64,000 bases of DNA from Anaerolineales bacterium (GTDB lineage Bacteria; Chloroflexota; Anaerolineae; Anaerolineales; UBA11657), in assembly GCA_022450585.1 (NCBI GenBank), contig JAKUPR010000006.1:175-64174 (forward strand), read 5' to 3'. Made by a program: the position numbers and the translations under genes. Below, piece by piece: positions 6,820-61,491 of the stretch. Within the stretch, counting starts at the first letter, position 1. Every line of letters begins with the position of its first letter. Below the pieces are notes generated by a model, which had not been told where the DNA came from, ran no database searches, and worked only from the letters and a program-made list of their open reading frames with translations.

Positions 6820-7269
6820 CTACCGATACAGCCGACGTACCTTTTCCCGCAAGTGACTTAGAATACGTGCGGGCGTTTCTGTTACCCGGTGAATGCGCTT
6901 CACTTGCGCTTCTGCGGTGTTTGAGTAATGCCAAGCAGTACTGTTAACGTTTGCGCTAATCCGTTCTCCGTTCCGTAACAATGCAGTGATTCCGTCGGAT
7001 GTTCTTGACAGAACTACTACCAGCGCTAAGATGGTCACTAGACCTAAAATGCCAATTAAGAGAGCAGGTGCCATTATCAGTATTAGGACGGTATCCGCGA
7101 GCAACCCGTGGTTTATACGTCCTGCAAATGCTCCGTATGCTAGGGCAGCGGCTCCAATTATTGCTGATAACCCGGCAAGGCATACCGGCAAGTAAACTTC
7201 TAATTGCAGCCCACGCTGTATGTCGCGAGCTTGGGCGCTTGAATCTGATTTATGTGACGAGTGATCCAT
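6820..7269 (-). CDS. Membrane protein, function unknown
   Basis: Two or three TM helices. The track start (GTG at 7326) overlaps the divergent PHP gene. The internal ATG at 7269 (MDHSSHKS..) removes that overlap, so the start is uncertain. Confidence 0.45.
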   Translation of the reverse strand: MDHSSHKSDSSAQARDIQRGLQLEVYLPVCLAGLSAIIGAAALAYGAFAGRINHGLLADTVLILIMAPALLIGILGLVTILALVVVLSRTSDGITALLRNGERISANVNSTAWHYSNTAEAQVKRIHRVTETPARILSHLREKVRRLYR

Positions 7270-7312
7270 CCTAATAATTCTACCACTGTGTAAGGAGGTA
7301 TACTTAGCGGAG

Positions 7313-7966
7313 ATGTCTCTAATCACTGTCGAAACCCACTGTCACACAAAATATTCCTCAGATTGCATGATGGCACCGCGACGATTGATCGCTGTCTGTC
7401 AGCGGCAGGGAATCCAACGTCTCTTCGTTACTGATCACAATACCGCCCGGGGTGCTTTTGAAATGGCATCTATGGCACCGGATTTGGTGATTCCGGGCGA
7501 AGAGATTAGGACTAGCCAGGGAGAATTACTAGCGTTTTTTCTTGAAAAGGAGGTTCTACCTGGTTTGCAACCTATGGAAACGATTGAGCAGTTACGATCT
7601 CAGGGAGCAGTGATTGCTGTGCCGCATCCATATGATTACCATCGTCGTGGTGGTTGGAGCGAGGATCAGCTGCGAGCAGTTTTACCATATGTAGACGCTG
7701 TTGAGACGTTCAACGCTCGTTCTCTGCGGTCAAACATGAACGAACGAGCTGCTGCACTTGCTAGAGAGTTGGGTGTGGCTGCAATAGTTGGCTCGGATGC
7801 GCATACATATGCTGAGGTTGGGTGTACAACTATGTGCATGCCAGTATGGACAGACGCGAATCAATTTCTGGCTACTCTTCCAATGGCTCAGCTCCGGCCA
7901 CGACGCTCATCAGCCTTGGTGCATCTGTCCTCGCGTTGGGCAGCCTTGTTGCATCGGATACGGTGA
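7313..7966 (+). CDS. PHP-domain metal-dependent phosphoesterase
   Basis: N-terminal VETHCHTKYSSDC motif and later HP/DAH histidine motifs typical of the PHP family. AAGGAGG lies upstream at 7292-7298. Confidence 0.7.
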   Translation: MSLITVETHCHTKYSSDCMMAPRRLIAVCQRQGIQRLFVTDHNTARGAFEMASMAPDLVIPGEEIRTSQGELLAFFLEKEVLPGLQPMETIEQLRSQGAVIAVPHPYDYHRRGGWSEDQLRAVLPYVDAVETFNARSLRSNMNERAAALARELGVAAIVGSDAHTYAEVGCTTMCMPVWTDANQFLATLPMAQLRPRRSSALVHLSSRWAALLHRIR

Positions 7967-8553: not shown

Positions 8554-9129
8554 ATGGAATATCCTGAAGAAGAGTCTACTAATCGACCTTTCATCATCGC
8601 GTCGGTAGCACTAGGAGGGCTCTTTGTCGCCGGTCTAGTAGCATTAGGTCTTTACGCATTTAAGTTAAGGCCTGCACAGGCTAGTGCTAGTGCGACCGAG
8701 GTTGCAGAAATAAACGTAAGTAATACGCAGGTTGCGGAGTACGCGGAGGCCACTTCTGTCGCGCAGGTTGCAGCGGTTCTGGTCCCGGATTCGGAACAGC
8801 AGGGACGCCTCGCGGATGCAGGCATCTCAGAATCTGGCAACGCCATACTGGTAGCTCCGGCAGAACCAGTAGCTGTGTCAGGGTTGTCTGAATCATCCAG
8901 TGTCTCAGTGGGAACATCTGGCTCAGCGAATAAGATACCTGACAGAAGCAACCGGGAGTTGGCTGTTGCTGCTACTGCTATTCCAGTGGTGTCAGTTTCT
9001 GCCGCGGAGGCTTTGCCTGATACGGGGTTTGCAGACGAAGTTGGTATACCTGTTTTGATCCTGACAGCTCTCGGTTTGCTTGCGGTTGTTGTTATCAGTC
9101 GCTCTATGCGGCATTTCGTCAGCGGATAA
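8554..9129 (+). CDS. Surface protein with N-terminal signal/anchor and C-terminal LPXTG-type sorting signal
   Basis: N-terminal hydrophobic segment (IIASVALGGLFVAGLVALGLYAF). Low-complexity A/S/V-rich middle. The C-terminus reads LPDTG, then hydrophobic IPVLILTALGLLAVVVI, then basic SRSMRH. GGGGAGG lies 6 nt upstream of the ATG. Confidence 0.7.
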   Translation: MEYPEEESTNRPFIIASVALGGLFVAGLVALGLYAFKLRPAQASASATEVAEINVSNTQVAEYAEATSVAQVAAVLVPDSEQQGRLADAGISESGNAILVAPAEPVAVSGLSESSSVSVGTSGSANKIPDRSNRELAVAATAIPVVSVSAAEALPDTGFADEVGIPVLILTALGLLAVVVISRSMRHFVSG

Positions 9130-17673: not shown

Positions 17674-18249
17674 TCAGAATGCGCCCAATTGCAAGGCTGT
17701 TATTAGTAGAGCAATACCAGCTAATCCCAAGGCAGCCGCCACCCAAATTATCCATAGTGGTTGCTGATTCTGATGATCCGTGTCTACTTGTCCTGCAGTG
17801 TTTCCTCTACTGGATTTATCACTATTCTGAAGTAGGGTATCAGTGGGTGGGCTATCCGGGGTTTGTGGGATAGAGGCAACTTCTGGGCCACTATCCGCGA
17901 CTGTTTTCTCCAGTGTAGTACTCTCTACTATTGGATTTGTGGGTGGCTTGGCTGTGGGAAGACTACGGTTAAGAGGCCGACGATGCTTCTTCGCTTCGAT
18001 TACCCACGGATCTCCGGGTGCTAGCAGCTGTGCCCTACGAATTGCCCCTGAACGTTCTTTAGAGTTTTCCGCAATATCCGCAAGCCATTTCCAGGCAAGC
18101 AGCGTACTTGGGTGATGTTGAACGAACTGTCGCAGTCCCTTACGCGCTGTTTTGATTTCTCCATTTTCTGCTTCGGCAATTAGGGCCAGCAATTCGGAGG
18201 ATTCTTGATGCATGTCATAACTATACATGATGATTATGCTTGTTGCCAT
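17674..18249 (-). CDS. Hypothetical tail-anchored protein
   Basis: Helical N-terminal region, Pro/Thr-rich linker and one C-terminal TM helix (LWIIWVAAALGLAGIALLITAL). No family recognised. Confidence 0.4.
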   Translation of the reverse strand: MATSIIIMYSYDMHQESSELLALIAEAENGEIKTARKGLRQFVQHHPSTLLAWKWLADIAENSKERSGAIRRAQLLAPGDPWVIEAKKHRRPLNRSLPTAKPPTNPIVESTTLEKTVADSGPEVASIPQTPDSPPTDTLLQNSDKSSRGNTAGQVDTDHQNQQPLWIIWVAAALGLAGIALLITALQLGAF

Positions 18250-18294: not shown

Positions 18295-18648
18295 ATGGTC
18301 ACAGATTCACATCATCTGATTACAGAGATAGAATCTGAGCTCCAAAAAGCTGAGATTGCGAGCCTTGGTGGCAACAAGGGCAAGGCGAGAGTTTGCGCTA
18401 GACGCGCAGCAGGGTGGGCGATTCGCGAATGGCAGTCCCAGAATGGTGTTTTCGAGCCACACCGGTCGGCATACTGGTATTTGCAGGTAGCAGCTGTAGA
18501 TTATTCCTTGCCTACTCATGTTCGAACGGCAGCGGGCCATTTGATTATGCGTATCAATGAAGATCACAATCTCCCAGTTGATGCTGATGTTTTGGCCGAT
18601 GCACGCGTACTAGTAGATTTCTTTTTAGATTCTAATCATGGCTCATAA
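18295..18648 (+). CDS. Hypothetical protein (117 aa)
   Basis: ORF of reasonable length, divergent from the previous gene. No recognisable motifs. Confidence 0.35.
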   Translation: MVTDSHHLITEIESELQKAEIASLGGNKGKARVCARRAAGWAIREWQSQNGVFEPHRSAYWYLQVAAVDYSLPTHVRTAAGHLIMRINEDHNLPVDADVLADARVLVDFFLDSNHGS

Positions 18649-23138: not shown

Positions 23139-24518
23139 TCATCTGTCTGATTTCGGGAATTCTATGCGTATACGTGATGCAGCGTGGCCTTCGACTGCGA
23201 TTACAGTGAAGGTTGTGTCAATATAAGTGTATCGGTCGCCTAACTGCGGCGGTCGTCCTAGCCATGTCATTAGCAATCCGCTCACTGTCTCCACCGGAGG
23301 CAATTTATTGGGTTCGCCTAATCTGACTATCTCGTCTAAATCTTCGACTGGGCAATCTCCTGCGGTTTCTAATATACCAGGTGCAATATGTATGAGTTTC
23401 TCTGAATCCATATCGAATTCGTCTTGTATTTCGCCTACAATCTCTTCGAACAAATCTTCAAGGGTAACGATTCCTGCGGTGCCTCCATATTCATCCAATA
23501 CGATGGCCATGTGAGATGGACCATCCTTTAAGGATGACAGTACCGTTCCCAACGGGGCGTTTTCTGGTAGATGATGCGCCGGATGTAAGAGTGTGTGCAG
23601 ATTAAAAGTGTTCAGTGTATCCATATGCTGTCGGGCCAGATCCTTTACATGTAGGATTCCTATAATGTGGTCTAGATTGTCCTGATAAACTGGAAAGCGG
23701 CTGAAACTACTGGATACAACATCGTTCAAGATATCTTCTAGGGCAGTGTCGTGCGCAATTGCTTTCAATCTGTTGCGTGGCGTCATAACCTGATTCAGGC
23801 GACGTTTAGAGAAATCGAACACTCCTAGCAACAAAGCTCTTTCATTATCTTTTAATAGGCCGCTCAAAGCGCTTTCACTGACAATTTGTACTAATTCTTG
23901 GGGTGAGTGAAGTCGAGCTTCATCGTTAGATGTTCGCATGCGCATCATGGCCAGCAATTTGAGACCGACTGCGTTTAGCGCAGTGACTGGAATGAAAAGC
24001 AATTTTTGTGCCCAGTGCATCATGTCGACTATTACTAGTGCAGTGCGACGGGGTGCACTGAGGGCAAGTGCTTTGGGTGCCATTTCACCTAGGACTACAT
24101 GAAGGTAAGTCAACAGGGTTAGTGCAATAATTGTAGCGAGCGAGTGTGTAAGAGCGGGACGCAGACCTACAGATGTGATATGCGTTAAATACGGTTCGAT
24201 GAAATGGGCGATACGCGGTTCCGCATACATTGCCAGCCCAATCGATGCAAGGGTTATCCCGAGTTGCGCAGTGGCTATATAGCGATCTTGTGTGGCAGAT
24301 GTTTCGAGAATAGATAGTACGCGGCTCGCGCGTGCGTTACCTTCTTTGGCAAGTTGTTCCATCTGGGTTCGGCGGACACCTATAATTGCAAACTCTGCTG
24401 CAACGAACACACCATTGACGAAGATCAGAGCAGCGGTGATGAGAACAGGTACAACGATTATAAGTGGTTCATTGAGAGCGGTGCTGATACCGGAAGAGAT
24501 GCTATTGATGAGGGTCAC
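23139..24518 (-). CDS. CNNM/DUF21-CBS-CorC_HlyC family membrane protein (hemolysin/TlyC-like, putative divalent cation efflux)
   Basis: N-terminal 4-TM DUF21 (AEFAIIGVRR), a CBS pair and a C-terminal CorC_HlyC-like domain (..FTVIAVEGHAASRIRIE). Confidence 0.8.
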   Translation of the reverse strand: MTLINSISSGISTALNEPLIIVVPVLITAALIFVNGVFVAAEFAIIGVRRTQMEQLAKEGNARASRVLSILETSATQDRYIATAQLGITLASIGLAMYAEPRIAHFIEPYLTHITSVGLRPALTHSLATIIALTLLTYLHVVLGEMAPKALALSAPRRTALVIVDMMHWAQKLLFIPVTALNAVGLKLLAMMRMRTSNDEARLHSPQELVQIVSESALSGLLKDNERALLLGVFDFSKRRLNQVMTPRNRLKAIAHDTALEDILNDVVSSSFSRFPVYQDNLDHIIGILHVKDLARQHMDTLNTFNLHTLLHPAHHLPENAPLGTVLSSLKDGPSHMAIVLDEYGGTAGIVTLEDLFEEIVGEIQDEFDMDSEKLIHIAPGILETAGDCPVEDLDEIVRLGEPNKLPPVETVSGLLMTWLGRPPQLGDRYTYIDTTFTVIAVEGHAASRIRIEFPKSDR

Positions 24519-25635
24519 GATCTGGCTTGTTCTGATTAGTGTCTGCTATGAAATCTTGCTCATGCTCTGTTTGGTGATTGGAAACCTTACCTGTTGTTGT
24601 ATCAAATTCGTCCTGTAGTTCTCCAAATACCTGTTCTAGGAGGTCTTCGTATGTGATGAGACCAACAGTATTGCCACCCACGTCTTGTACTATTGTTATG
24701 TGCTGATTTTGGGCCGTGATTCTTTCCCATATCGCTGCTACATTCATTGTTTCTGGAATGAATGTTACTGTTCGCAGTATGCCAGAGGTGTTGTTGGTAC
24801 CATCCACTCTTGAGCGTAGCAGATCCTTAATGTGAACGAAGCCGACGATTCGGCTCAAGTTGTCTTGGAAAATTGGTATGCGGCTGAACCCTGTTTGTAG
24901 GCAGATACGCAGTACGCTTGAGACTGAACTAGTTGAGGATGTTGCAACAATAATTTCTCTCGGAGTCATTATTGCGCCGGCGTTCAGGTCGCGTAATCTC
25001 AAAGAATTACGTAGCATGTGGCGTGCTCCTGGGATCAGGAGTCCTCCTGCCTGACTATCCGCTGCCAGTAATTCAATTTCTTCGGGTGTATGTGCTCCTG
25101 AGTGCTGTTCTCTAATGTTGATGCGCAGTATCCTTAAGAGTAGATTTCCACTACCGTTGAATAGCCAAATTAGAGGTTGAAAGAGACGTAAAGACCATTG
25201 CATAGGAAGTACTGTTGCTAGGGCTAGTCTTTCTGGATGTTGGATGGCGATTGATTTGGGAAGCAATTCTCCTATAATCATCTGCAGACTTGTTAGTAGC
25301 AGTAACATACTAGTGACCGCTATGGAATGGGCTGCTGGGATAGCGAGGCCTCCCATTCGCGATAGAATCGGTGTCAATTGGGAGGCTAGTACGTTTTGTC
25401 CGTATGCGCCTAGCAGTAAGGAAGTAGCAGTGATACCCACCTGACAAGCAGCCACATATCTGTCGAGGGCATGGCTATTACTCACTATCGGCAGGAGTTG
25501 CTTCGCCAAGCGGTTTCCCGAGTCGGCCATCTGGGTGATGCGAGTGCGGCGTGCGCTGACCGTTGCGAATTCCGCCGCAACGTAAAGAGCGTTAATCAGC
25601 ACTAACACAGTGACTATAGTGGCGATAGTCATCAA
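24502..25635 (-). CDS. CNNM/DUF21-CBS protein, paralog lacking the C-terminal CorC_HlyC domain
   Basis: Has the same DUF21 start (AEFATVSARRTR) and CBS pair. It ends shortly after the CBS pair in a short hydrophilic tail. Overlaps the downstream paralog by 17 nt. Confidence 0.75.
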   Translation of the reverse strand: MMTIATIVTVLVLINALYVAAEFATVSARRTRITQMADSGNRLAKQLLPIVSNSHALDRYVAACQVGITATSLLLGAYGQNVLASQLTPILSRMGGLAIPAAHSIAVTSMLLLLTSLQMIIGELLPKSIAIQHPERLALATVLPMQWSLRLFQPLIWLFNGSGNLLLRILRINIREQHSGAHTPEEIELLAADSQAGGLLIPGARHMLRNSLRLRDLNAGAIMTPREIIVATSSTSSVSSVLRICLQTGFSRIPIFQDNLSRIVGFVHIKDLLRSRVDGTNNTSGILRTVTFIPETMNVAAIWERITAQNQHITIVQDVGGNTVGLITYEDLLEQVFGELQDEFDTTTGKVSNHQTEHEQDFIADTNQNKPDRDPHQ

Positions 25636-26090: not shown

Positions 26091-27530
26091 ATGAATGAAA
26101 GTTTGTCATGCCCACAAGTGATGCTGATTTCGTGCTATGAACTTGGGCATCAACCGTTTAGTCTTGGCTCTACGCTCGGTATTCTTGACGGGGAGGGCGT
26201 TAAAGCAGCTGCGGTTGATCTAGCTGTTGAGGAGATGAGTGCGTACACTGGCTTTCTTGAAAAAGTGCGTCTTGTGGCAATTTCTGCTCCTATGCACACC
26301 GCGCTGCGTATTGGAACGGAGACTGCACGCCAGGTTCGTTTACTCAACCCGGATGTGCATATATGTTTTTTTGGCTACTATGCCGGTCTGAACACTGATT
26401 ACCTAATAAACTCTGGATATGCTGACAGTACTATCGCGGGTGAGTTTGAGTCCGCGCTTTTAGATCTGGTTCTGGATGTACTATGTTCAGAATTCGACCC
26501 TGCTGCTCCACCAGAGGGTGTAAGTACTGCCAACTTTGTTTCCGTGCCATCGATGAAGCGAGTTGCTTTTGAGCCGCCGCAGCGTGATGGTTTGCCAACT
26601 CTAGAGCGTTATGCTCGTATGCGCAGCGATGGCGAGTTGAGGCTGGCGGGCTATACTGAAAGTTCGCGTGGATGTAAATATGTGTGTCGCCATTGCCCGG
26701 TTACGCCAGTTTACAACGGGCGTTTTTTTGTTGTTCCGCACGATATTGTCTTGGGTGATGTTCGGTCTCAGGTGAATTCAGGTGCAAAGCACATTACTTT
26801 TGGTGATCCAGATTTTTTGAACGGACCGCGTCACGCGCAACGGGTAGTGCGCTCACTACACGCTGAGTTCCCAGAGGTGACATTTGATTTCACGGCTCGG
26901 ATACCGCACTTGTTGCGATATAGTGACCTATTACCAGAAATGGCTGACTCAGGATGCGCGTTTGTTGTTTCTGCCATTGAATCACTGAGCGATGATGTGT
27001 TAGCCTCGTTGGATAAAGGTCATGTCAGGGCAGATATTCTTCGCGCGCTTGATCTCCTTGATGATGCGGGTATTCCATTGCGACCTTCGTTGCTCCCTTT
27101 TACGCCGTGGACAACCTTGGATGATTATCTTGAATTGCTTGCTTTTGTCCGAGAAAATGATTTAGTGGATTATATTGACCCAGTTCAGTATAGCTTAAGG
27201 CTGCTCATACCTCCGGGATCAGCCATCTTGGAAAAACACGCGCAAGCCCCTTGGATTGGGGAGCTGGACCCTGCGAGTTTCAGTTATGTTTGGAATCATC
27301 CAGATGGTCGAATGGAAAATTTGCAGAAACAAGTGAGTCTTCGGGTGGCTAACGATGATAGAGCAGGTGAGCCAGTACGTAGTACTTTCGCGGCGATTGA
27401 AGAAATAGCTGCTGGTATCGGCTGTGTATCACCTCCTTACCCCCGCACAGTGCCGTCGCGTCGTAAAGTACCTGCTGGTTTGACGGAAAGCTGGTTTTGC
27501 TGAGCAGAGCCTGTAAGCGAGTCAGGTTGA
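26091..27530 (+). CDS. B12-binding-domain radical SAM protein with probable selenocysteine tail (..C-U-A-E-P..), read through the TGA at 27501
   Basis: Radical SAM cluster motif SSRGCKYVCRHCPV (CX3CX2C) after an N-terminal B12-like domain. The track ORF ends ..ESWFC at TGA 27501-27503. The in-frame continuation GCA GAG CCT GTA AGC GAG TCA GGT TGA gives C-U-A-E-P-V-S-E-S-G*. A SECIS-like hairpin follows. Confidence 0.7.
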
Positions 27531-27555
27531 CTCGCCAAACTCTGGCCGGCTCTGC
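27504..27555 (+). promoter_or_regulatory. Putative bacterial SECIS element
   Basis: Apical stem GCGAGTC (27517-27523) / GACTCGC (27529-27535) with loop AGGTT containing GU, starting 13 nt after the TGA. Lower stem GCAGAGCC (27504-27511) / GGCTCTGC (27548-27555). Confidence 0.55.
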
Positions 27556-27836
27556 AAGATTGTTGCTAGTGTGGCTACGTGCTCTGCGAATGCCTGCTGT
27601 CCCAGAGCGGTAACAGATATATATGTACGTGGTTTGCGGCCGACAAATGCCTTCTCTACGGTAATGTGACCTGCGGTCTCTAGCGTGCGCAGATGCGAGC
27701 CGAGGTTGCCGTCGGTTGCTTCAAGGAAATCCCGGAGAGCAGTGAAGTCCACACGTGAGCCAGAATCTAGTCCGGTCAGTGCTGCCATAATGCGTAGACG
27801 TACTGGTTGGTGAATTGTCTGGTTGAGATCATCCAT
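27522..27836 (-). CDS. Winged-helix (ArsR/MarR-like) transcriptional regulator
   Basis: 104 aa. HQPVRLRIMAAL... then LGSHLRTLETAGHITVEK..GRKPRTYISVT fits a wHTH recognition helix plus wing. Confidence 0.65.
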   Translation of the reverse strand: MDDLNQTIHQPVRLRIMAALTGLDSGSRVDFTALRDFLEATDGNLGSHLRTLETAGHITVEKAFVGRKPRTYISVTALGQQAFAEHVATLATILQSRPEFGEST

Positions 27837-27933: not shown

Positions 27934-28977
27934 CTAATCGATGATTGTCAAGTCGTGGTCTTTTCTGGCGGTTGATATTAACGCAACCCATTGGCTCGTG
28001 TCGGAATCTATGTCAGGTGCCTTTTCGCTTGCAAGTAGGCTCATACCCGATGCATTGAGAGCATCGTGTGTTTCGCGTTCTTGTTCTGCCAAAATGCCCG
28101 CTAGGATCATAATCCCTGTAGGTGCTATTGTCTGAGCAAGACCGTCCTCTAAGAAATGCGTGATGACTCTTGAAAGGATGTTGACCACAACTATGTCAAA
28201 TTTGGCTTTGCGTTGTACTGCTGTCAGAGAACCCTGAACCAGTATCAAGCTGTTGGATACGCCGTTAGCCCTCGCGTTTTTTTGTGCAGCGTGAATTGCA
28301 TCTGGATCAGTGTCAAATCCCACTGCAAGGTTTGCACCCAACTTCAATGCTGCGATTGCAAGGATTCCTGATCCGCACCCCAAGTCCAACACACTTTCTC
28401 CGGGGCGGAGATACTTTTCGATGGCCGCTAGGCATAGTTGGGTAGAGGGATGCGCGCCAGTACCGAAGGCCTGTCCAGGGTCAATGATGATAGGAACATC
28501 TTTCTTGGTAATTCTTGGCTCCATCCATGCAGGGATTACAAGTAGTCTGTTGCCCACCCGTAGAGGTCGGTAGTGCTTCTTCCATTGTGCAATCCAGTCC
28601 GTATCACTTACGGGTTTGTAGTCTGCTATGGGAGGTGTCAATCCGGATTCGCGCGCAATTAACTGGAGTGGCCAGAGCTCGCGTTCAATTTCTAACAGGG
28701 CGGGTAACAGATTGTAGTCTACTTCTAGGAATGACCTTACTATCAATCTACCACTAGGGGATTGTGTTGGCGTACCAATAGATTCTGGGAAGTTGTGTTT
28801 ACATACTGGTTCGACTGGTTCTATGGCTACCCCGGAGGGACAATAACGTCCAAGTGCTTCTGCTGATACTTCTGCTGTTTCAGGGTCGACCGTCAGTGAG
28901 ATTTCGATCCAGCGGTACTCATTGATATTCTCTAGCAAATCATCAAACTGCGTGCGATGTGATGCAGTGGTGCTCAC
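27934..28977 (-). CDS. prmA: Ribosomal protein L11 methyltransferase
   Basis: SAM motif VLDLGCGSGILAIAALKLGA, FGTGAHPSTQLCL and DIVVVNIL. Lies directly downstream of dnaJ with a 4-nt overlap, as in Bacillus-type dnaK operons. Confidence 0.85.
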   Translation of the reverse strand: MSTTASHRTQFDDLLENINEYRWIEISLTVDPETAEVSAEALGRYCPSGVAIEPVEPVCKHNFPESIGTPTQSPSGRLIVRSFLEVDYNLLPALLEIERELWPLQLIARESGLTPPIADYKPVSDTDWIAQWKKHYRPLRVGNRLLVIPAWMEPRITKKDVPIIIDPGQAFGTGAHPSTQLCLAAIEKYLRPGESVLDLGCGSGILAIAALKLGANLAVGFDTDPDAIHAAQKNARANGVSNSLILVQGSLTAVQRKAKFDIVVVNILSRVITHFLEDGLAQTIAPTGIMILAGILAEQERETHDALNASGMSLLASEKAPDIDSDTSQWVALISTARKDHDLTIID

Positions 28978-30104
28978 AGACCTAAGACGTCTCGCATTTG
29001 CTTGAAAAATCCTTTTTCGTGTTTGTTCTCGCGCGGTTTTGCTCCGTTTTCGAAGGTTTTGTCGAGCTCTGTCAATATCCGGCGTTGGTCTGCGGTCATT
29101 TCGGTTGGTACTACAACAGCAGTAATCACAATTTGGTCTCCACGACCTCTGCCGCGTACGTGAGGTACTCCTCTACCACGCAGCCTGAATATTTCTCCTG
29201 GCTGGGTGCCAGGTGGGATGTCTAGTCTTTCCTCTCCGTCGATTGTGGGTACCATCACCTCTGCTCCAAGTGCTGCTTGGGAGACATTGATTTCTAGCTC
29301 GACGACAATGTCAGTTTGGCGCCTACTGAAAAAAGCATGAGGTGTAACGCTCAAGACTACGTAAAGGTTTCCATTCGGACCACCTTGGTCACCTGGTGAT
29401 CCTTCTCCGGAAAGTCTAATCTGTGTTTCATCGTCTACTCCAGCCGGAATCTTCACCGAGAGTTTCCGTCTGGCGTTTTCATGACCATTACCTTGACACT
29501 GCTTACATGGAGAAAGGACAGCCTCACCACTCCCCCGGCAGTTTGGACAGGCGTTGACGTTCACCATCGATCCTAGGAATGTCTGGCGCACTTGTCGTAC
29601 CTCTCCGCTGCCATTGCACTGGGAACAGCGCGATGGACTGGTGCCGGGCTCAGCGCGGCTTCCCTTACAACGAGAACAGGTCTCCGGACGTGTAATTTCT
29701 ATTTCTCTTGTGGCGCCATGTACCGCTTCTTCAAATGTGATGGTTAGGTCATAGCGGAGGTCTGTTCCCGGTCTTGCACCTCTGCGACCATCACGCCGTG
29801 CTCCGCCGAAGCCTCCAAAAAACTGATCGAATATATCATCAAATGGAAAGCCGCCTGAGAAATCCATATTGCCCATTCCTTGCAAACCTGCGTGTCCATA
29901 CTGGTCATAGGCAGCGCGTTTTTCTGGATCGGAGAGAATACCATAGGCTTCGTTGATTTCCTTGAAGCGTGCATCTGCGCCAACATCTTTGCTTACATCG
30001 GGATGAAGCTTTTTGGCTAGCCTTCGGTACGCGTTCTTGAGTGTGCTGGGGTCTGTGTCCTGCGGCACGCCCAGAATCTCGTAATAGTCTCGTTTATCTG
30101 CCAT
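28974..30104 (-). CDS. dnaJ: Molecular chaperone DnaJ
   Basis: J domain (DYYEILGV...HPD), G/F region and four CxxCxGxG zinc motifs. Confidence 0.95.
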   Translation of the reverse strand: MADKRDYYEILGVPQDTDPSTLKNAYRRLAKKLHPDVSKDVGADARFKEINEAYGILSDPEKRAAYDQYGHAGLQGMGNMDFSGGFPFDDIFDQFFGGFGGARRDGRRGARPGTDLRYDLTITFEEAVHGATREIEITRPETCSRCKGSRAEPGTSPSRCSQCNGSGEVRQVRQTFLGSMVNVNACPNCRGSGEAVLSPCKQCQGNGHENARRKLSVKIPAGVDDETQIRLSGEGSPGDQGGPNGNLYVVLSVTPHAFFSRRQTDIVVELEINVSQAALGAEVMVPTIDGEERLDIPPGTQPGEIFRLRGRGVPHVRGRGRGDQIVITAVVVPTEMTADQRRILTELDKTFENGAKPRENKHEKGFFKQMRDVLGL

Positions 30105-30184
30105 CTATCGCAACGTTTTTCTGTGATTCCAATATACAAGGTGTGATTTTGGCTGGTGGCACGCCTTCGATTGCACGTTTTTGA

Positions 30185-32104
30185 TCACTCTTCCTTGAAT
30201 TCGCCCTCAAAAATTTCCTGGTCAGGTTCTTCTTCCTGACCGTCTGGGTCCAAATCTGCTTTCGAATCTTGGGTATTAACATCCGCTTCACTGTCCTGTT
30301 GCTGTTGGTGAGCATCCTCACCTATTCTCTGAATTTCCTGCTGTAATGTGTTAGTGGCAGCGCGGATGGCCTCCAGGTCCTCTCCGGCAAGTGTCTTGCG
30401 AAGAGCGTCAAGAGCATCTTCCACGCCAGCTTTTATTTCCGGGTCGGCTTGCTCGCCTAGGTCTTTTAGTGCGCGCTCGGCGGAGTACGTGGCTGTATCT
30501 CCAGCATTAATTACCTCTATCCGTTCCTTACGTTGTCGATCTTCGTCATGGTGCTCTCTTGCTGCCGATACCATGCTCTCAATCTCATCTTCTGAGAGTC
30601 CAGATGACCCTTGAATTGTAATGTTCTGACTACGGTTTGTAGCTTTGTCTTGAGCTGCAACGTTTAATATTCCATCTGAGTCCAAATCAAAAGTAACTTC
30701 GATTTGTGGTACTCCGCGCGGTGCCGGAGGGATTCCATCAAGCACAAATTTTCCTAGACTTTTGTTGTCGGTGGCCATTTGGCGTTCGCCTTGCAATACA
30801 TTAATTTCGACTGAACTTTGCATATCTGAGGCGGTGGAAAATACCTGGCTTTTGCTAGTAGGTATGGTTGTGTTTCGTTCAATTAATGCTGTAGATACGC
30901 CGCCAAGAGTTTCTATGCTGAGGGTGAGAGGTGTGACATCTAGCAGAAGGACGTCCGTTACGTCGCCTCCGAGAACTCCTGCTTGGATTGCAGCTCCAAC
31001 AGCTACCACCTCATCTGGATTGACTTTCTTGTGAGGTTCGCGTCCAAATAGTTCTCTGACGGCTTGCTGTACTGCAGGCATACGCGTCATTCCTCCGACG
31101 AGAACAACTTCGTCCACGTTTTCTGGTTTCAAGCGCGCGTCTTCAAGAGCTGCCTGTACGGGCAGCATTGACTGCTCTACCAGATCCGCTGTAAGCTGCT
31201 CCAACTTTGCTCGCGTAAGAGTGTAATTCAAGTGTTTTGGGCCGCTAGTGTCCGCAGTGATAAAGGGAAGGTTAATTTCAGTTTGCATTACAGTGCTGAG
31301 CTCAATCTTTGCCTTTTCGGCAGCTTCTCTTAGACGTTGCAGTGCTTGACGGTCCTGGCGTAAATCGATGCCATGGTCTTTTTGATATTCGTCTGCCAGC
31401 CATTCAAGTACCCGTAAGTCGAAATCATCTCCGCCTAGATGAGTGTTGCCATTGGTGGCACGCACTTCGAAAACACCGTCCCCTACATCTAGAACAGAAA
31501 TATCAAAGGTGCCACCTCCTAGGTCAAACACTGCAATAGTTTCCTCAGATTTTTCTTCAAGTCCATAAGCAAGGGATGAAGCTGTGGGCTCGTTGATTAT
31601 TCGCAGCACTTCCAAGCCAGCAATGCGGCCCGCATCTTTGGTAGCTTGCCTTTGTGTGTCGTTGAAGTAAGCTGGTACGGTAATTACTGCCTGAGTAATG
31701 GCTTCTCCTAAATAAGCCTCAGCATCATCTTTTAGTTTTGCGAGCACCATAGCTGATATTTCCTGGGGGGAGTATTCCTTTTCACCCATATGAACCCTTA
31801 AATCTCCGTTGGGGGCTGCGGAAATCTCGTATGGTGTGTGGCTCATGGCACGCTGTACTTCGGGGTCATCAAATTTTCTGCCGATGAATCGCTTAATGGA
31901 GAAGAGTGTATTTTCAGGATTTGTAATAGCCTGTCTACGCGCAACTTGACCCACTAGACGCTCCCCGGTTTTAGTGTTCATGGCTACAACTGAAGGCACT
32001 AGTCGGCCACCCTCAGAGCTGGAAATCACTGTGGGCTCCCCGGCTTCCATAATTGACACAACTGAGTTGGTAGTACCGAGGTCGATGCCTATTATCTTAC
32101 CCAT
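30185..32104 (-). CDS. dnaK: Molecular chaperone DnaK (Hsp70)
   Basis: [17 protein letters not shown] and [10 protein letters not shown] signatures. 639 aa. Confidence 0.97.
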
Positions 32105-32125
32105 AATTACTGTTTCCTTTGCGTT

Positions 32126-32752
32126 TTATTTGGCCACGCGCACTTGAGTTGGCCGTAACACGCGCTCACCTAATTGATATCCAGATCGTACGACGGCGAT
32201 TATAACGTCGGTCTCGTATTCCGGATGCTCTTCTTGGACGATCGCCTCATGGAAATGTGGGTCGAATTCATGCCCTGCTTCGGCTTCAATTGGTGTGACC
32301 CCCTCTCCCTCAAGCACAGACACAAGCTTTCGATGTACCATGTTTACTCCTTCACTCCACGCAGCGCCATCTCCGCTGTTTGGCAGCGAATCTAGGGCTA
32401 GTACTAGGTCGTCTAGAATCGGGAAGAACATTGTTAGTAAAGATGCGGCAGCGTTCTGGCGAATCAGCTGCATGTCTCGCGTGGTGCGACGTTTGTAGTT
32501 TTGGAAATCCGCCAGAGAACGCTGCTGTCCATCTAATCTCTCTGCCGCCAATGCTTCGGCAGCGGCAAGTTTATCTATCAACTGTTCGACAGTGAGTTCG
32601 TCCGGTGAAACCTCCGCTATGTCGTCTTCATCATGTACTGTTGCTTCTTCTCCGTCTTCCTGATTGTGTTCAGGAGTTGCGCTTGTTGGCTCATCATCTA
32701 GGCTTTTTTTTGTAGGCTGCTCTTTCAGTATATTTTTTTCTTCGTCAATCAC
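32126..32752 (-). CDS. grpE: Nucleotide exchange factor GrpE
   Basis: Acidic N-terminus, the coiled region (..DFQNYKRR) and a C-terminal beta domain (F.P..HEA). Position is between hrcA and dnaK. Confidence 0.9.
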   Translation of the reverse strand: MIDEEKNILKEQPTKKSLDDEPTSATPEHNQEDGEEATVHDEDDIAEVSPDELTVEQLIDKLAAAEALAAERLDGQQRSLADFQNYKRRTTRDMQLIRQNAAASLLTMFFPILDDLVLALDSLPNSGDGAAWSEGVNMVHRKLVSVLEGEGVTPIEAEAGHEFDPHFHEAIVQEEHPEYETDVIIAVVRSGYQLGERVLRPTQVRVAK

Positions 32753-32827
32753 AGAATCACTCCATTATTGATGGTCGATTGGGATTCTTCGCTCCGGGGT
32801 TGCTTGCTATTTTGCGGCTCCCATTTG

Positions 32828-33865
32828 TCACCCGTAGCTTTCGTGTACTAGACTGGTCATTAGGTGTGCAACGTGGCGCACGGCTCCTATGGCGCGCTCA
32901 TAGGCCATGCGCGTTGGGCCAAAAACACCGATTGCACCAGTAGCCACGTTGGGAGAACCGTAACGCGCCAGTACCATAGAGTATTCACGAAGCTCGCTCC
33001 AATCTCCTTCTCCGGCGATGACCACCTGTACGCCGCCAATACGTGGACTGAGCGCTGAAGCCAGAAAATCCTCGAGGAAGGTTCGTTTCTCCAGTAGTTG
33101 CAGTGCCTTACGCGCCTTGGCAGAATCGGTGAACTCTTGCTCAGAGAGCACATTTTGTACTCCGTCTAGATACAGCTCGCCAGCTACGAACGAATCGGCT
33201 TGGCGCATCGTTGTGGCCATTTGTACTAGAATCGTGCGTTCTAACCAGCTTGCGACCGAATTGCTCCTATTTTCGACGGCGTCGGCTCCATGTCTCCGAC
33301 ATTTCTCCGTTAATCGCGATGCGATTTTCGATAGTTCTGCTTGTAATACTGGCTGCTTCAGCGTGCAGAGTTGCTGCAACACTTCTCCACCTTGGAGCAC
33401 TAAAACCATTAGAATTTGATGCCCATGGGTTGATATGAGCTCAATATGTTTACATCTTGCTTGTGGACTGTGTAGTGCAGTAACTAGTGAGGCGGCTTGT
33501 GTGTGATGCGCAAGTACGGCTGCGGCCAGACGGCCCCATTGGTCTACACTGGTACGAGCCTGATGGAACTGGTGGCTTATCAGGCGCCGCTCCGCTGAGG
33601 GTAGGGAATCGTCATTTACCAATCGCCCTACGAAGTAGCGGTATCCAGATTCAGTAGGGATGCGACCTGCGGAGGTGTATGGCTGATTGAGGAATCCTAG
33701 TCGTGTGAGAGCTGCCATCTCGTTACGTACTGTGGCGGAACTATAGTCGAGCTTGTGTTTCTCCACAAGCCTTTTTGAGCTTACCCCGCTCTTACGGGGG
33801 AACTCCACATATTCGCGCACAATCAGGCCTAGTAGCCTTTCTTGGCGACCAGTAAGTGTTTCCAT
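32828..33865 (-). CDS. hrcA: Heat-inducible transcription repressor HrcA
   Basis: N-terminal wHTH (LTGRQERLLGLIVREYV...VSSKRLV....SSATVRNEMAALT..GFL.QPYTSAGRIPT). First gene of the operon, with CIRCE upstream. Confidence 0.92.
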   Translation of the reverse strand: METLTGRQERLLGLIVREYVEFPRKSGVSSKRLVEKHKLDYSSATVRNEMAALTRLGFLNQPYTSAGRIPTESGYRYFVGRLVNDDSLPSAERRLISHQFHQARTSVDQWGRLAAAVLAHHTQAASLVTALHSPQARCKHIELISTHGHQILMVLVLQGGEVLQQLCTLKQPVLQAELSKIASRLTEKCRRHGADAVENRSNSVASWLERTILVQMATTMRQADSFVAGELYLDGVQNVLSEQEFTDSAKARKALQLLEKRTFLEDFLASALSPRIGGVQVVIAGEGDWSELREYSMVLARYGSPNVATGAIGVFGPTRMAYERAIGAVRHVAHLMTSLVHESYG

Positions 33866-36453: not shown

Positions 36454-39400
36454 ATGTTTAAGAAGCTGCTAACAGCGGTCGGGGGAAACCCGACTGAGCG
36501 CGACCTGGAAGAGTATGAAATTGTCGCTGATGCAATCTCCGCCTTAGAACCTGAATATCAGGCGCTTACCGATTCTGAGCTTTGCCACAAAACAGACTTT
36601 TTTCGAGAGCACCTGAGTAGCGCCATCTCTGGAATTACCGATGAAGAAGCCATAGCCGATGCTGAAGCAATTGCTCTTGATGACATTCTGGTTCCGGCGT
36701 TTGCCACGGTCAGGGAAGCTGCAGTCCGTACCATCGGATTGCGCCATTACCCAGTTCAACTAATTGGCGGCCAGGTGCTTCACGCAGGTCGCATTGCGGA
36801 AATGCGTACCGGCGAGGGAAAAACTTTGGTGGCGACTCTGCCTCTTTACCTGAACGCGCTTCTGGGCCGTGGCTCGCATCTGGTGACGGTCAACGATTAC
36901 CTGGCTCGCCGTGATGCGAAATGGATGGGCCCAATATTTCATTTGCTTGGCATGCGAGTTGGTATTCTCCAGGACGCTGGTCGTACTGACAACGCACAAA
37001 TGGCCTTCGTTTTTGATCCTGAGCACGAGACGTCGCAAGAGGATAGCAACCGTATGCGGATTGTGCCTCGACGTGAGGCTTACGATGCTGATATCACTTA
37101 CGGTACAAACAATGAATTTGGATTTGATTATCTGCGTGATAATATCGCTAATCGCTTGGATGAAAGACGGCAGGGAATGTTGCATTACGCCATAATTGAT
37201 GAAGTAGATAATGTACTCATTGATAGTGCGCGTACTCCACTGATTATCTCTGGGCCTGCACAGCACGATCCGACTATGTACGCGGAGCTAGCACAGGTTG
37301 TGCGTCAGTTAAAACCTAATCATTATGATATTGATGACCGCGCACGTGGAATATCCATTACCGATGAAGGCTACGATCGGGTTGAAGAACTACTTGGCCG
37401 GATGCTCCGTGATCCCGATCGTCCGGAGGACATCACCCCAGAGCAAGCGCAGATTCAATCGCATTTGGAACAGGCGATGCGAGCCGAATTCATTTTTAAG
37501 CGGAACAAAGATTATCTAGTGAGAAGCGGTCATGTGGTCATTGTAGACGATTTCACTGGTCGGGTGATGCCAGGACGCCGCTGGTCTGATGGACTACATC
37601 AAGCTGTGGAGGCTAAGGAAGGAGTGGATATTCAGGCGGAGAATGCTACATACGCTACCATCACTCTGCAGAACTTTTTTCGCATGTATACGAAGCTTTC
37701 TGGTATGTCTGGTACCGCCCTGACTGAAGCTGAGGAATTTGACAAGATTTACAAGATTGACGTTGTTGCAATCCCTACTCATCTTGACTATCGTGCTCGT
37801 GTCGACCCTGATTTGACCGAGGTTGCTTTCCGTGAAAATGGCTCGAGATTTACCTTTATTGCGCATGTGAATGACCCTGATATACCATTACTTCACAGGC
37901 GTAAAGATTATGATGACCTAGTCTTTCGTACCGAGGAGGCCAAGCTCCGTGCCCTTATGCGGGAAGTACTTACCCGTCATGTACGTGGTCAGCCCATGTT
38001 GATTGGTACCACTTCGGTGGAGGCATCTGAACAATTGGCGTCCCGCTTCCGGGGAGATGCCCTACGCATGTTGGCTTTGGTCTGGATACTACGGGATACA
38101 TGGTTCGAGGCCAATGATCGAGAGGAGGATGGTCGCGTAGTGCCGGAACTTGCGCTGTTCAATATGTCGTTGCAGAAACTGAAGACATCGCAATTGAGAC
38201 CCCTCGCAAAAGAGCTGAAACTGCGCTTAAATCCTAATTCTGCTGAAAACATCTCGAGGTTGGGCGATATACTCGGCATTGAATCACAGCTGCATTCAAA
38301 ACTAAGCAAAGTACTTCAGTCGGGTATTTCTTGCCAAGTGTTGAACGCCAAGAAGCATGATGAAGAATCACAAATTATAGCGAGCGCCGGGGAACTTGGA
38401 GCGGTTACTATTGCTACTAATATGGCCGGTCGAGGTGTAGATATCAAGCTAGGCGGTGAAATTACCGAAGAGGCGCTTGCCAACGTCAACCGCGTTTTGA
38501 AGCGCACGGGCAGCAGTGATCCTTTTAGTATGAATCATGAGGAACGTGCTGAGGCAATCTCCGCACTTTCTTCTGATGACTACGGAATTTATGAAGAGGA
38601 GGTGCGGGCATTTCTACAGTATATTGATGACGAACAGAAAGTGCGTGGGTTGGGAGGACTACACGTGGTTGGATCGGAACGCCACGAAGCGCGTCGCATT
38701 GATAACCAACTTCGTGGGCGCGCCTCCCGTCAGGGGGATCCGGGCTCTAGCCGTTTCTACCTTTCCCTAGAGGATGAGCTTATGCGTAGGTTTGGCGGTG
38801 CCAATGTCTCAAACCTTATGGAGCGCTTGAGCATTGATGAGGCAATGCCTATTGAGCATGGCATTGTGAATAAGAGCATAGAGCAGTCACAGACGAGAGT
38901 AGAAGGTGCTAATTTCGACGTGCGCAAACATTTGCTCGAATATGACGATGTACTCAATGTGCAGCGCAACAAATTTTACCAGCAGCGAAATCGTATTTTC
39001 CGCAAGGATGACCTCAGCGAAGACATCGAGGCAATTCTGGTAGCTGAAGTGCGAAGACGGGTGACAGCGTCCAGTGCGGATGAGGAGGGTCATTGGCGGT
39101 TGCTGGCTTGGCTAGATAGCACTCAACCTACGTTACAGCATCCGGATGGCAGCCTTTTCTTTCCCTTCAGCATAGAGTTGATTCTGGATTCATTGGCGCA
39201 GGCGGTACCGGCATTGGGGAACCTCTGGCAGGTGCAGCATCATGCGGGGGATGTTGAAGATTGTGCTCGGGCACTTTCTGGACAACAAACTGAAATTAGA
39301 ACCACACTTTTGCAAATGGCCCGGAGTGCTGCCGATTTAGCACTGGAACGTATGCTGCTTTCATATGATGCCGAGTTAAATACTCTAGCTGCGCAATTGC

Positions 39401-40665
39401 CTGAGCGGATACGCGAAAGATGCGAACTTGCAGAAATGACGTATGAAGGAGCTGTGATGGATGCGCGGGAAGCCGGACATGCTTTGCCAGTTACGCAGGT
39501 AGCAAGAGAAATGCTCGACACTGCTGGGGTGTCTCTGCAGTTAGGTCGTGAAGAGCTCCAAGAGTTGAACATGGATAACCTTCAGGATAAGGTGAAGACA
39601 CTCATTGAGAGTGTGCTAGGTATAGAACTGGTTAGTGGTGCAATGCGTCGAATTGAAACGCGTACGCGGTTGGAGTTACTGCTGGACCTGCCTGCTTGGG
39701 ATCAATTTGACTGGGATGACTGGCACGATAATGTGTTGGAAATACTGGCGATTGAGCAGAATGTTCGCATTGAGAAGCACATTGGCGAAATAGAATACTT
39801 CCTTGAGCAGAATGTTACCCATTCAGCAGATATGACGCGCAGTGATTGGGGACGCCTAATTTTAGACTTGGCATATAGTCGTGATGTCAGTTTCCATGAG
39901 AAGACTCGTGAGCGGGTGGTTCGTATGGAGCAACGCTTCCCGTATGTGTATCACTCGGCGGAGTTGGTGCATCGAGATGACGATGAAACTTTGTCGAAAC
40001 ATGTGCTAGATCATTTGACGCGGGCAGGTGAAGTGTTGAAACACTCGTGGGGCGAGACAGAATTACAGCGTTTGCATCTGCAGCGTCTCGATGATTTGGA
40101 TGAAAAGCACGCAACTATGCTGCGCGCTAGGATTGGTAGAACTGAATACGAAGCTATTAAGGGACAACAGCTAAGTGTGCTGTCCGGTAAGGTGCGCGAG
40201 GAAGTGCGAGAGGCGCTTGGGCGAGGTGTTGTAATCGGGGCCTATCGACAGATATTACTTTCTATTAGTAGTCAATTGTGGGTGGATTATCTCACGTCTA
40301 TGGAGGCACTACGTACGTCTGTTGGTCTTGAGGCATATGCGCAGCGCGACCCGTTGATAGCTTACAAGAGTCGTGCATTTGATTTATTTCAACAGCTAAT
40401 TCTTGATATGCGCAATGGTCTTGTTGCTTGTATGTTTACATCTGGCCCTGGGGAGTTGACCGGCGTCCGTACGGATAGGCCCCAAGACGAATCGAAATCA
40501 GGTGGGACCGACCTTGGTCGTAACGACCCATGTTGGTGTGGGAGTGGAAAGAAGTTCAAGAGTTGTCACATGGGACATTCGGGAGACAAAACTGCTCGGT
40601 CGGTTAGACACCCTTCGAGGAATACTAAAAAGAAAAAGCGCAAGAAGCGGCGCGCCCGTCGTTAG
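36454..40665 (+). CDS. secA: Preprotein translocase ATPase SecA, unusually long (1403 aa)
   Basis: Walker A MRTGEGKTLVATLP, DEAD-like box IIDEVDNVLIDSARTPLIISG, TGMSGTA, ATNMAGRGVDIKLGG, RIDNQLRGRASRQGDPGSS, and C-terminal zinc motif CWCGSGKKFKSCH. Large extra segments at about 38050-38330 and 39000-40245. Confidence 0.93.
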   Translation: MFKKLLTAVGGNPTERDLEEYEIVADAISALEPEYQALTDSELCHKTDFFREHLSSAISGITDEEAIADAEAIALDDILVPAFATVREAAVRTIGLRHYPVQLIGGQVLHAGRIAEMRTGEGKTLVATLPLYLNALLGRGSHLVTVNDYLARRDAKWMGPIFHLLGMRVGILQDAGRTDNAQMAFVFDPEHETSQEDSNRMRIVPRREAYDADITYGTNNEFGFDYLRDNIANRLDERRQGMLHYAIIDEVDNVLIDSARTPLIISGPAQHDPTMYAELAQVVRQLKPNHYDIDDRARGISITDEGYDRVEELLGRMLRDPDRPEDITPEQAQIQSHLEQAMRAEFIFKRNKDYLVRSGHVVIVDDFTGRVMPGRRWSDGLHQAVEAKEGVDIQAENATYATITLQNFFRMYTKLSGMSGTALTEAEEFDKIYKIDVVAIPTHLDYRARVDPDLTEVAFRENGSRFTFIAHVNDPDIPLLHRRKDYDDLVFRTEEAKLRALMREVLTRHVRGQPMLIGTTSVEASEQLASRFRGDALRMLALVWILRDTWFEANDREEDGRVVPELALFNMSLQKLKTSQLRPLAKELKLRLNPNSAENISRLGDILGIESQLHSKLSKVLQSGISCQVLNAKKHDEESQIIASAGELGAVTIATNMAGRGVDIKLGGEITEEALANVNRVLKRTGSSDPFSMNHEERAEAISALSSDDYGIYEEEVRAFLQYIDDEQKVRGLGGLHVVGSERHEARRIDNQLRGRASRQGDPGSSRFYLSLEDELMRRFGGANVSNLMERLSIDEAMPIEHGIVNKSIEQSQTRVEGANFDVRKHLLEYDDVLNVQRNKFYQQRNRIFRKDDLSEDIEAILVAEVRRRVTASSADEEGHWRLLAWLDSTQPTLQHPDGSLFFPFSIELILDSLAQAVPALGNLWQVQHHAGDVEDCARALSGQQTEIRTTLLQMARSAADLALERMLLSYDAELNTLAAQLPERIRERCELAEMTYEGAVMDAREAGHALPVTQVAREMLDTAGVSLQLGREELQELNMDNLQDKVKTLIESVLGIELVSGAMRRIETRTRLELLLDLPAWDQFDWDDWHDNVLEILAIEQNVRIEKHIGEIEYFLEQNVTHSADMTRSDWGRLILDLAYSRDVSFHEKTRERVVRMEQRFPYVYHSAELVHRDDDETLSKHVLDHLTRAGEVLKHSWGETELQRLHLQRLDDLDEKHATMLRARIGRTEYEAIKGQQLSVLSGKVREEVREALGRGVVIGAYRQILLSISSQLWVDYLTSMEALRTSVGLEAYAQRDPLIAYKSRAFDLFQQLILDMRNGLVACMFTSGPGELTGVRTDRPQDESKSGGTDLGRNDPCWCGSGKKFKSCHMGHSGDKTARSVRHPSRNTKKKKRKKRRARR

Positions 40666-46713: not shown

Positions 46714-46743
46714 AAACCACCTTTCTGGGGAGGAGAGGTGGTT
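46714..46743 (-). terminator. Riboswitch expression-platform hairpin (putative intrinsic attenuator)
   Basis: On the minus strand, AAACCACCT-loop-AGGTGGTTT is followed by CTTGTTATT. It sits between the TPP aptamer and the TPK coding region. Confidence 0.45.
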
Positions 46744-46751
46744 TGCGTAAT

Positions 46752-46846
46752 CGTAGTTTTCCCTTCGCCGGCATTACCCGGAGCAGGTTCCGTGGGTCGC
46801 AGGGCGGGGCCTGCCTCTCAGTCTGAAACTATAGACTCCCCAGTGT
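46752..46846 (-). promoter_or_regulatory. TPP (THI-box) riboswitch
   Basis: Minus strand: CTGGGGAGTCT..AGACTGAGAGG....ACCCACGGAACCTGCTCCGGGTAATGCCGGCGAAGGGA. This matches the conserved GGGG / CUGAGA / ACCC / GAACCUGAUC.GG.UAAU.CC.GCG.AGGGA core. Confidence 0.88.
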
Positions 46847-46863
46847 TATTATGATGTGCGGAA

Positions 46864-61489: not shown

Positions 61490-61491
61490 TA

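Follow-up and report, generated by a model that had tools for sequence, protein, structure and literature searches.

We examined a stretch of 64,000 nucleotides (the window) from the genome assembly of an Anaerolineales bacterium (Chloroflexota; GCA_022450585.1, contig JAKUPR010000006.1, positions 175 to 64,174) and found that a gene at positions 26091 to 27530 likely encodes a 479-residue radical S-adenosylmethionine (SAM) selenoprotein that belongs to NF040546, the NCBIfam family named "CUAEP/CCAEP-tail radical SAM (seleno)protein." The in-frame UGA at positions 27501 to 27503 is very likely decoded as selenocysteine (Sec) via a hairpin in the mRNA behind it, a recoding that is computationally well supported by comparison with related sequences. 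The feature is already catalogued by NCBI, whose model would name the gene automatically, and the gene in the window is not a discovery but an ordinary, well-documented member of a known selenoprotein family whose function is uncharacterised. For annotation, it matters that the gene is miscalled as encoding 470 residues in the public assemblies checked and that the Cys-Sec pair that gives the family its name is lost with the missing residues.

Family membership and the peptide tail

An open reading frame (ORF) of 470 codons (positions 26091 to 27503) ends with TGG TTT TGC, the last of which encodes Cys470 (positions 27498 to 27500), followed by TGA. Beyond this TGA, the same frame continues with GCA GAG CCT GTA AGC GAG TCA GGT up to a second TGA, giving a tail that would read ..WFC-U-AEPVSESG-stop. 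An earlier interpretation made from the letters of the DNA (here called the sequence-only reading) had proposed exactly this extension and had warned that ORF callers would truncate the protein; the frame was confirmed to the base, and public calls for this exact protein are indeed 470 amino acids long. The start codon at 26091 is uncertain, with an alternative ATG at 26121 (Met11), and the alignments of most relatives begin at residue 10. An identical protein is encoded on 21 contigs from public metagenome assemblies, and the organism is represented only by marine metagenome scaffolds of at most 70 kb, among them those in ERZ23495044, ERZ23495532 and ERZ23495038.

Scoring of the 479-residue protein with hidden Markov models, with Sec entered as Cys, gave a match to NF040546 of 638 bits (E = 8.6e-192; profile positions 1 to 464 of 468). 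As this is an equivalog model with a curated cutoff of 500 bits, the family assignment that the sequence-only reading had tentatively suggested proved correct. The tail motif of the family, Cys-[Sec/Cys]-Ala-Glu-Pro, is present as TGC TGA GCA GAG CCT at positions 27498 to 27512. The protein in the window thus shares with the family the radical SAM motif, the WFC-[U/C]-AEP tail and the hairpin after the UGA. It differs, together with its clade, in having 8 residues after Sec compared to 10 to 19 in most members, and a hairpin stem with one additional pair and an offset of one base. The only publication found to name the family, a preprint, counts it as one of the few selenoproteins that have a Cys-Sec motif and terms it uncharacterised, in line with the sequence-only reading; no characterisation of any NF040546 member was found in the literature searched.

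The DNA of relatives was collected from 80 genome loci and 80 metagenome loci, 159 of which reach the 3' end. The genome loci belong to Chloroflexota, Acidobacteriota, Planctomycetota, Gemmatimonadota, Nitrospirota, Rokubacteria, Poribacteria and others, and the family as a whole is found widely among aerobic phyla of soil and sea. The codon following WFC is TGA in 143 of these loci and a Cys codon (TGY, i.e., TGC or TGT) in the other 16, with AEP next in every case, which is one of the patterns of homologue tails for which the sequence-only reading had proposed a check. A protein search returned at least 7,996 database relatives at E ≤ 1e-20. Among the best 120, whose tails were inspected, 18 read WFCCAEP and 102 are cut at ..WFC, and the coding sequence of the Thermomicrobium roseum homologue in PLSDB likewise stops at the TGA. 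About 90% of the sampled members use Sec.

Across the eight tail codons, the window and its relative L081 (72% identical) show four differences, of which four are synonymous and none is non-synonymous. From the conservation of AEP and this exclusively synonymous change, we infer that the tail is translated and that purifying selection acts on it.

The hairpin downstream of the UGA

Positions 27517 to 27535 read GCGAGUCA-GGU-UGACUCGC and form a hairpin with the arms GCGAGUC(A) and (U)GACUCGC, which can be drawn either with a 7-bp apical stem and the loop AGGUU or with an 8-bp stem and the loop GGU. The sequence-only reading had described the 7-bp form, beginning 13 nt past the TGA, as having the geometry of a bacterial selenocysteine insertion sequence (SECIS), and this stem is present in the sequence as described. 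Its geometry was compared with the published consensus model for bacterial SECIS elements (PMC13188914), which specifies an apical loop of 3 to 9 nt on an upper stem of 4 to 16 bp, a G at loop position 1 or 2 that is usually followed by G or U, a distance of 16 to 37 nt between UGA and apical loop, and a minimum free energy of ≤ -7.5 kcal/mol. The hairpin conforms to all four rules, with 8 bp and GGU or 7 bp and AGGUU, a loop (A)GGU(U) whose G at that position is invariant in 72 relatives, a spacing of 20 to 21 nt (27504 to 27523 or 27504 to 27524), and a folding energy of -11.1 kcal/mol for positions 27517 to 27535 alone. The larger region from 27495 to 27565 folds with -29.3 kcal/mol, compared to -20.3 ± 2.9 kcal/mol for shuffled sequences (z = -3.1), and only 1 of 200 shuffles was as stable.

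The element resembles bacterial SECIS elements of the E. coli fdhF type in its in-frame position shortly after the UGA, its small apical loop with G-U, its spacing and its stability. It differs from them in that the consensus of the CUAEP family has a C:G closing pair and a loop A-G-U-U-N and finds no match in Rfam. Searches with Rfam of the whole window at the gathering threshold and of positions 27440 to 27620 at a permissive threshold yielded no SECIS family and only chance matches.

An alignment of 72 TGA-form sequences revealed compensatory double changes in 7 of 8 stem pairs, and the closing C:G pair and one loop G were invariant. The number of doubly changed cells was 111, compared to 46 ± 9 in shuffled alignments (0 of 500 equal) and at most 39 with slid partners. 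A covariance model was then built from 56 relatives with protein identity ≤ 55%, excluding the window and its clade. When the full 64 kb were scanned on both strands with filters off, this model gave a single significant match, at positions 27501 to 27546 of the plus strand (26.8 bits, rough E of 4.6e-8), in which all seven modelled pairs are formed; the next-best match had an E of 0.18. When the model was applied to the independent set of metagenome loci, all 72 TGA-form loci gave a match where the element was expected, but only one of seven Cys-form loci did so, weakly. In an alignment of this set fitted to the covariance model, 89% of the cells were paired, 6 of 7 pairs showed compensatory changes, and 94 cells were doubly changed, compared to 36 ± 9 in the controls.

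The mean energy of the hairpin region is -10.5 kcal/mol in Sec forms versus -6.9 kcal/mol in Cys forms (Mann-Whitney p = 0.005), and the Cys forms retain the AEPT..Q peptide despite their weaker hairpin. Among relatives with 56 to 76% protein identity, the stem is near-identical. Together, the compensatory changes in 6 or 7 of 7 or 8 pairs and the link to the TGA form show that the hairpin is conserved and covaries wherever Sec is encoded by TGA, so that the conservation on which the sequence-only reading had made its case depend is borne out by the alignments.

A second pairing in that reading, an 8-bp lower stem, fared only partly as proposed. Positions 27504 to 27511 (GCAGAGCC) are the exact reverse complement of positions 27548 to 27555 (GGCUCUGC), so the complement as such is perfect in the window, but it is not conserved across the family. 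The lower pairings differ in L081 and L082 and in L001 to L003, are loosely kept in the closest relatives, and are missing from the family consensus; the independent sequences are too few for a covariation test. As a functional element, the lower stem is unproven.

Selenocysteine decoding and competing explanations

Family membership, the alignment of the TGA with Cys codons, the AEP codons behind it and the covarying hairpin all support the in-frame Sec that the sequence-only reading had suggested. By analogy with fdhF of E. coli, the mRNA hairpin would act as a bacterial SECIS whose apical loop, with its conserved G-U, would be bound by SelB-GTP-Sec-tRNA(Sec) while the ribosome stands on the UGA 20 to 21 nt upstream. 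The ribosome would then read eight further codons (AEPVSESG), melting the hairpin, and would terminate at the UGA at positions 27528 to 27530.

Of the 54 ORFs counted in the window, 27 end in TGA, among them dnaK, dnaJ and hrcA, which makes TGA the most frequent stop codon there. A genome-wide reassignment of UGA is ruled out by this count, and since the code is not reassigned, read-through at the radical SAM gene must be site-specific.

Two negative results speak against the recoding. Neither selA, selB or selD nor a tRNA-Sec was found within the 64 kb using ARAGORN, Pfam and NCBIfam scans of most long ORFs, and tblastn searches of all 64 kb with the E. coli proteins SelA, SelB and SelD, and the case for Sec decoding in this organism is therefore drawn from conservation. 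Also, no published experiment on selenium incorporation was found for any family member. ARAGORN detected no tRNA-Sec in any of the fetched loci of relatives either. However, selD lies near the gene in seven related loci (L028, L046, L050, L123, L136, L153 and L159), of which L050 carries a Cys form. In the three genome loci among them, selD (L028, 6476-7498; L046, 7454-8455; L050, 3995-4912; all on the minus strand) is divergent from an operon of ATP-grasp, radical SAM and Nfu genes. The adjacent selD of the acidobacterial loci L028 and L046 carries an in-frame TGA of its own in a CAG-TGA-AAK motif, which aligns with the GAGCGCK motif of E. coli SelD. This in-frame TGA suggests that carriers of the TGA form decode Sec, which lends indirect support to the gene in the window. 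When plasmids were searched by tblastn with E. coli SelD, T. roseum was not among the matches listed.

That no machinery was seen in the 64 kb would also fit a relic gene, in which the organism has lost Sec decoding and the UGA now terminates a truncated, perhaps inactive protein; Sec-to-Cys conversions and losses of Sec are common in bacteria (PMC1794560). We consider this very improbable, given an intact ORF, a stem that has stayed near-identical over the range of protein identities given above, a tail that has changed only synonymously, and the recurrence of the identical protein on 21 public metagenome contigs. Also very improbable is that the TGA is a genuine stop, the protein ends with ..WFC, and the hairpin has some other role, for instance as a terminator between convergent genes or through the constraint of an overlapping convergent HTH_34 gene: the frequency of TGA as a stop in the window, the overlap with the convergent gene and the unseen Sec machinery would agree with it, but all 159 loci continue with AEP codons and 16 of them have a Cys codon in place of TGA, most relatives have longer tails with the hairpin wholly inside the frame and no convergent gene, Cys forms lose the hairpin yet keep the peptide, and there is neither a T-run on either strand nor a terminator call at the hairpin. 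An intrinsic terminator was ruled out on these last two grounds.

Relation to ArsL, possible chemistry and gene neighbourhood

The protein has a Rossmann-like domain at its N terminus, a barrel of the radical SAM type (Pfam PF04055, 44.5 bits, cutoff 29.5) and a C-terminal tail with Cys470-Sec471. In 89 sequences, Cys470 is invariant like the three cysteines of the radical SAM motif (Cys195, Cys199 and Cys202), and Cys15, Cys92 and Cys289 are conserved in at least 90%. His20 and His311 are invariant histidines of the family, and His69 and His201 were noted in addition. The AlphaFold model of the Cys-form homologue P0027 (53% identical) has a mean predicted local distance difference test score (pLDDT) of 94.6 and a predicted template modelling (TM) score of 0.92. 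Foldseek with this model gave AprD4, OxsB, TsrM and MgmA as best matches (TM score 0.56 to 0.71), with MiaB more distant. These enzymes share the overall two-domain Rossmann and radical SAM fold, but are only 14 to 19% identical and none has a Cys-Sec tail. With respect to class B (cobalamin-dependent) enzymes, the fold resembles that of AprD4, OxsB and TsrM, and the match to the Pfam B12-binding domain is below threshold (16.5 bits, cutoff 32.1). In a sequence search of the PDB, MgmA (9ccb) was the sole match, a weak one, and neither the CUAEP family nor ArsL was represented by a structure.

The second-best NCBIfam model was NF040542 (ArsL, 290.9 bits), and a Bacillus cereus protein with the RCCLKC tail of that family is 38% identical over 411 residues, across both the Rossmann-like and radical SAM domains. 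ArsL, the closest relative that has been characterised, functions in arsinothricin biosynthesis; it cleaves SAM to methylthioadenosine and a 3-amino-3-carboxypropyl radical and adds this radical to As(III) on its C-terminal cysteines. Without its RCCLKC tail, which is the part that binds As(III), the C-As bond does not form, and the variant named MCCA has the highest catalytic efficiency. Both families have a Cys-rich motif at the extreme C terminus and ATP-grasp neighbours. We therefore put forward, tentatively, an ArsL-like chemistry in which the Cys-Sec tail carries a soft atom into the active site. As in ArsL, the tail would be a mobile arm, the Cys-Sec pair would bind a soft atom (metalloid or chalcogen) and offer it to the SAM-derived radical, and a carbon-heteroatom bond would result; in many relatives, the product might be handed to the neighbouring ATP-grasp amino-acid ligase. 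The bolder form of this proposal seems quite unlikely to us, namely that CUAEP enzymes form C-heteroatom bonds on tail-held selenium or a soft metalloid to yield an unrecognised seleno- or metalloid-amino acid that is then used by the ATP-grasp ligase. If it were true, an undescribed pathway would be widespread among Chloroflexota, Acidobacteriota and other phyla of soil and sea.

Several observations weigh against an ArsL-like chemistry. The NF040542 score lies below the cutoff of 450 bits, the tail in the window is FCUAEPVSESG and not RCCLKC, and ArsL is not a selenoprotein. There is no arsM, arsQ or ars island near the gene, and the commonest neighbours in the family are helpers of iron and Fe-S metabolism (YggX and Nfu) instead of metalloid genes. 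In the P0027 model, the tail itself has only moderate confidence (pLDDT 69 to 78). In addition, the one RCCLKC-tail protein compared has other residues in place of Cys15, Cys92, Cys289, His20, His69, His201 and His311, and the CUAEP family therefore probably has an extra metal or cluster site that is absent from ArsL, as far as the sequences indicate.

It is also conceivable, if rather unlikely, that the Cys-Sec pair serves as a redox selenenylsulfide or hydrogen-atom relay that reduces or quenches an intermediate, with Sec still inserted. Mammalian thioredoxin reductase ends in Gly-Cys-Sec-Gly, and a vicinal Cys-Sec near a flexible C terminus is its defining geometry; the tail in the window, likewise a C-terminal extension with vicinal Cys-Sec, shares this arrangement, but the folds are unrelated and at least eight residues follow the pair in CUAEP proteins. 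Most bacterial selenoproteins are redox enzymes, and an RclA/MerA-like disulfide oxidoreductase is encoded near the gene in L046. Nevertheless, no thioredoxin-like partner is conserved beside the gene, and the Cys-rich tail of the nearest characterised relative serves to bind substrate and not for redox chemistry.

A further, unlikely proposal is that the tail and Cys15, Cys92 and Cys289 ligate or service a second Fe-S cluster and that the enzyme inserts sulfur or selenium. Such a cluster would resemble the auxiliary clusters of MiaB or LipA, which donate sulfur and are rebuilt by NfuA, and MiaB is among the structural matches. The replacement of the three near-invariant cysteines in the RCCLKC-tail relative compared would fit this role. 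So would the neighbours. Genes within 5 kb of the radical SAM gene were counted in the 89 relatives whose loci extend at least 2.5 kb to either side; YggX occurred in 44 (directly upstream in many) and Nfu in 15. In the seven loci named above, including the Cys-form locus, selD stands beside the operon. On the other hand, YggX and Nfu could merely support the main cluster in aerobic hosts, and the loci with selD all apparently belong to one lineage.

Beyond the gene itself, the comparison yielded a family-specific SECIS model, a 90:10 ratio of Sec to Cys forms, the relation to ArsL and a set of conserved neighbours. Starting points for experiments are provided by the similarity to ArsL (38% identity), by the additional cysteines that the family conserves and by the recurrent neighbours (YggX, Nfu, ATP-grasp, formyltransferase-like and sometimes selD), and T. 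roseum, a cultured carrier with a complete genome, would be a good system for them; a Cys form is available from Thermogemmatispora, for example. The TGA-form gene of T. roseum (TRD_RS12835; L167, 11935-13371; NC_011961.1, the megaplasmid of strain DSM 5159) reads WFC-TGA-AEPLEDPSGP.. and is annotated with the family name with a coding sequence that stops at the TGA; it is flanked by genes for an aminotransferase, a major facilitator superfamily transporter and a large GNAT protein. On the B. cereus plasmid pAH820_272 (L168, 1441-2664 and 5998-7272), the RCCLKC-tail gene lies in an arsenic island with an ATP-grasp gene that is related to the ATP-grasp neighbour of CUAEP genes (E ~1e-22). This island also includes genes for ArsR, an MIP channel, GNAT, ACR3 and arsC/D/A. 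In L046, selD is followed by the RclA/MerA-like oxidoreductase gene and two EgtB-like genes.

The features of the gene and the recurrent neighbours are compiled in Table 1. Unlike many family members, the gene in the window has none of the YggX, Fmt-like, ATP-grasp, Nfu or ArsB-like neighbours and adjoins the HTH_34 gene and the dnaK operon instead. It is bordered by dnaE and two CNNM genes on one side and by HTH_34, prmA, dnaJ, dnaK, grpE and hrcA on the other, a gene order common to the closest genomes, Anaerolineales UBA3499 and UBA3001. The tail overlaps the convergent HTH_34 gene by 9 nt (27522 to 27530), with the stop and last codons of the latter inside the hairpin, and this region is therefore under two coding constraints in addition to that of RNA structure. 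L001 to L003 show the same convergent arrangement; most relatives are without such a gene yet keep the hairpin.

Table 1. Features of the radical SAM gene at its locus and frequency of neighbouring genes in relatives
Feature	Positions	Strand	Remarks
Full coding sequence, putative CUAEP-tail radical SAM selenoprotein	26091-27530	+	479 codons plus stop; NF040546 covers residues 10-477
Radical SAM CxxxCxxC motif, Cys195/Cys199/Cys202, [4Fe-4S] ligands	26673-26696	+	Invariant in 89 sequences
Vicinal Cys470 (TGC) and predicted Sec471 (TGA) codons	27498-27503	+	"CU" of the family name
Tail Ala-Glu-Pro-Val-Ser-Glu-Ser-Gly, predicted translated	27504-27527	+	AEP present in 159/159 loci
Possible extended lower stem	27504-27555	+	Clade-specific, not established; part of minimum-energy fold
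Putative SECIS upper stem-loop	27517-27535	+	7-8 bp stem, loop (A)GGU(U), 20-21 nt after UGA
Predicted true stop TGA	27528-27530	+	Within 3' arm of hairpin; same position in L081-L085 and L001-L003
Convergent gene, 104-aa winged-helix protein	27522-27836	-	Pfam HTH_34 PF13601, 82.6 bits
YggX-type oxidative-damage/iron protein			44/89 loci
Fmt-like formyltransferase			36/89 loci
ATP-grasp L-amino-acid-ligase-like protein			30/89 loci, including 8/8 Cys forms
Nfu			15/89 loci
ArsB-like permease			12/89 loci

The hrcA-grpE-dnaK-dnaJ operon (28974-33865, minus strand) is a direct neighbour of the gene described here, and this adjacency recurs in L002, L003, L028, L046, L059 and L070, which represent Anaerolineales, other Chloroflexota, Acidobacteriota and Nitrospinae. 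Two tandem, slightly overlapping CNNM/CorC paralogues (459 and 377 amino acids; 23139-25635, minus strand) lie upstream of the gene and are conserved in L001 to L003.

Elsewhere in the window, a 595-amino-acid ORF (4621-6408, minus strand) matched nothing in Pfam or NCBIfam at the thresholds applied, and the ORFs at 6820-7326, 8554-9129, 17674-18249 and 18295-18648 had no Pfam match. A thiamine pyrophosphate riboswitch (RF00059, 58.8 bits; 46743-46852, minus strand) precedes a gene for thiamine pyrophosphokinase and an operon for a thiamine ATP-binding cassette transporter (46647 to 42152). At 59476-62901 (minus strand), the gene for a 474-amino-acid protein with two DnaC/IstB-like ATPase matches is flanked by a DnaB_2 (DnaD-like) gene and by dnaB, which encodes the replicative helicase. 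The SecA gene is unusually long (1403 amino acids; 36454-40665, plus strand) and is preceded by genes for a B12-binding small subunit, MeaB and phosphoribosyl pyrophosphate synthetase, which lie in the same frame with TGA stops between them.

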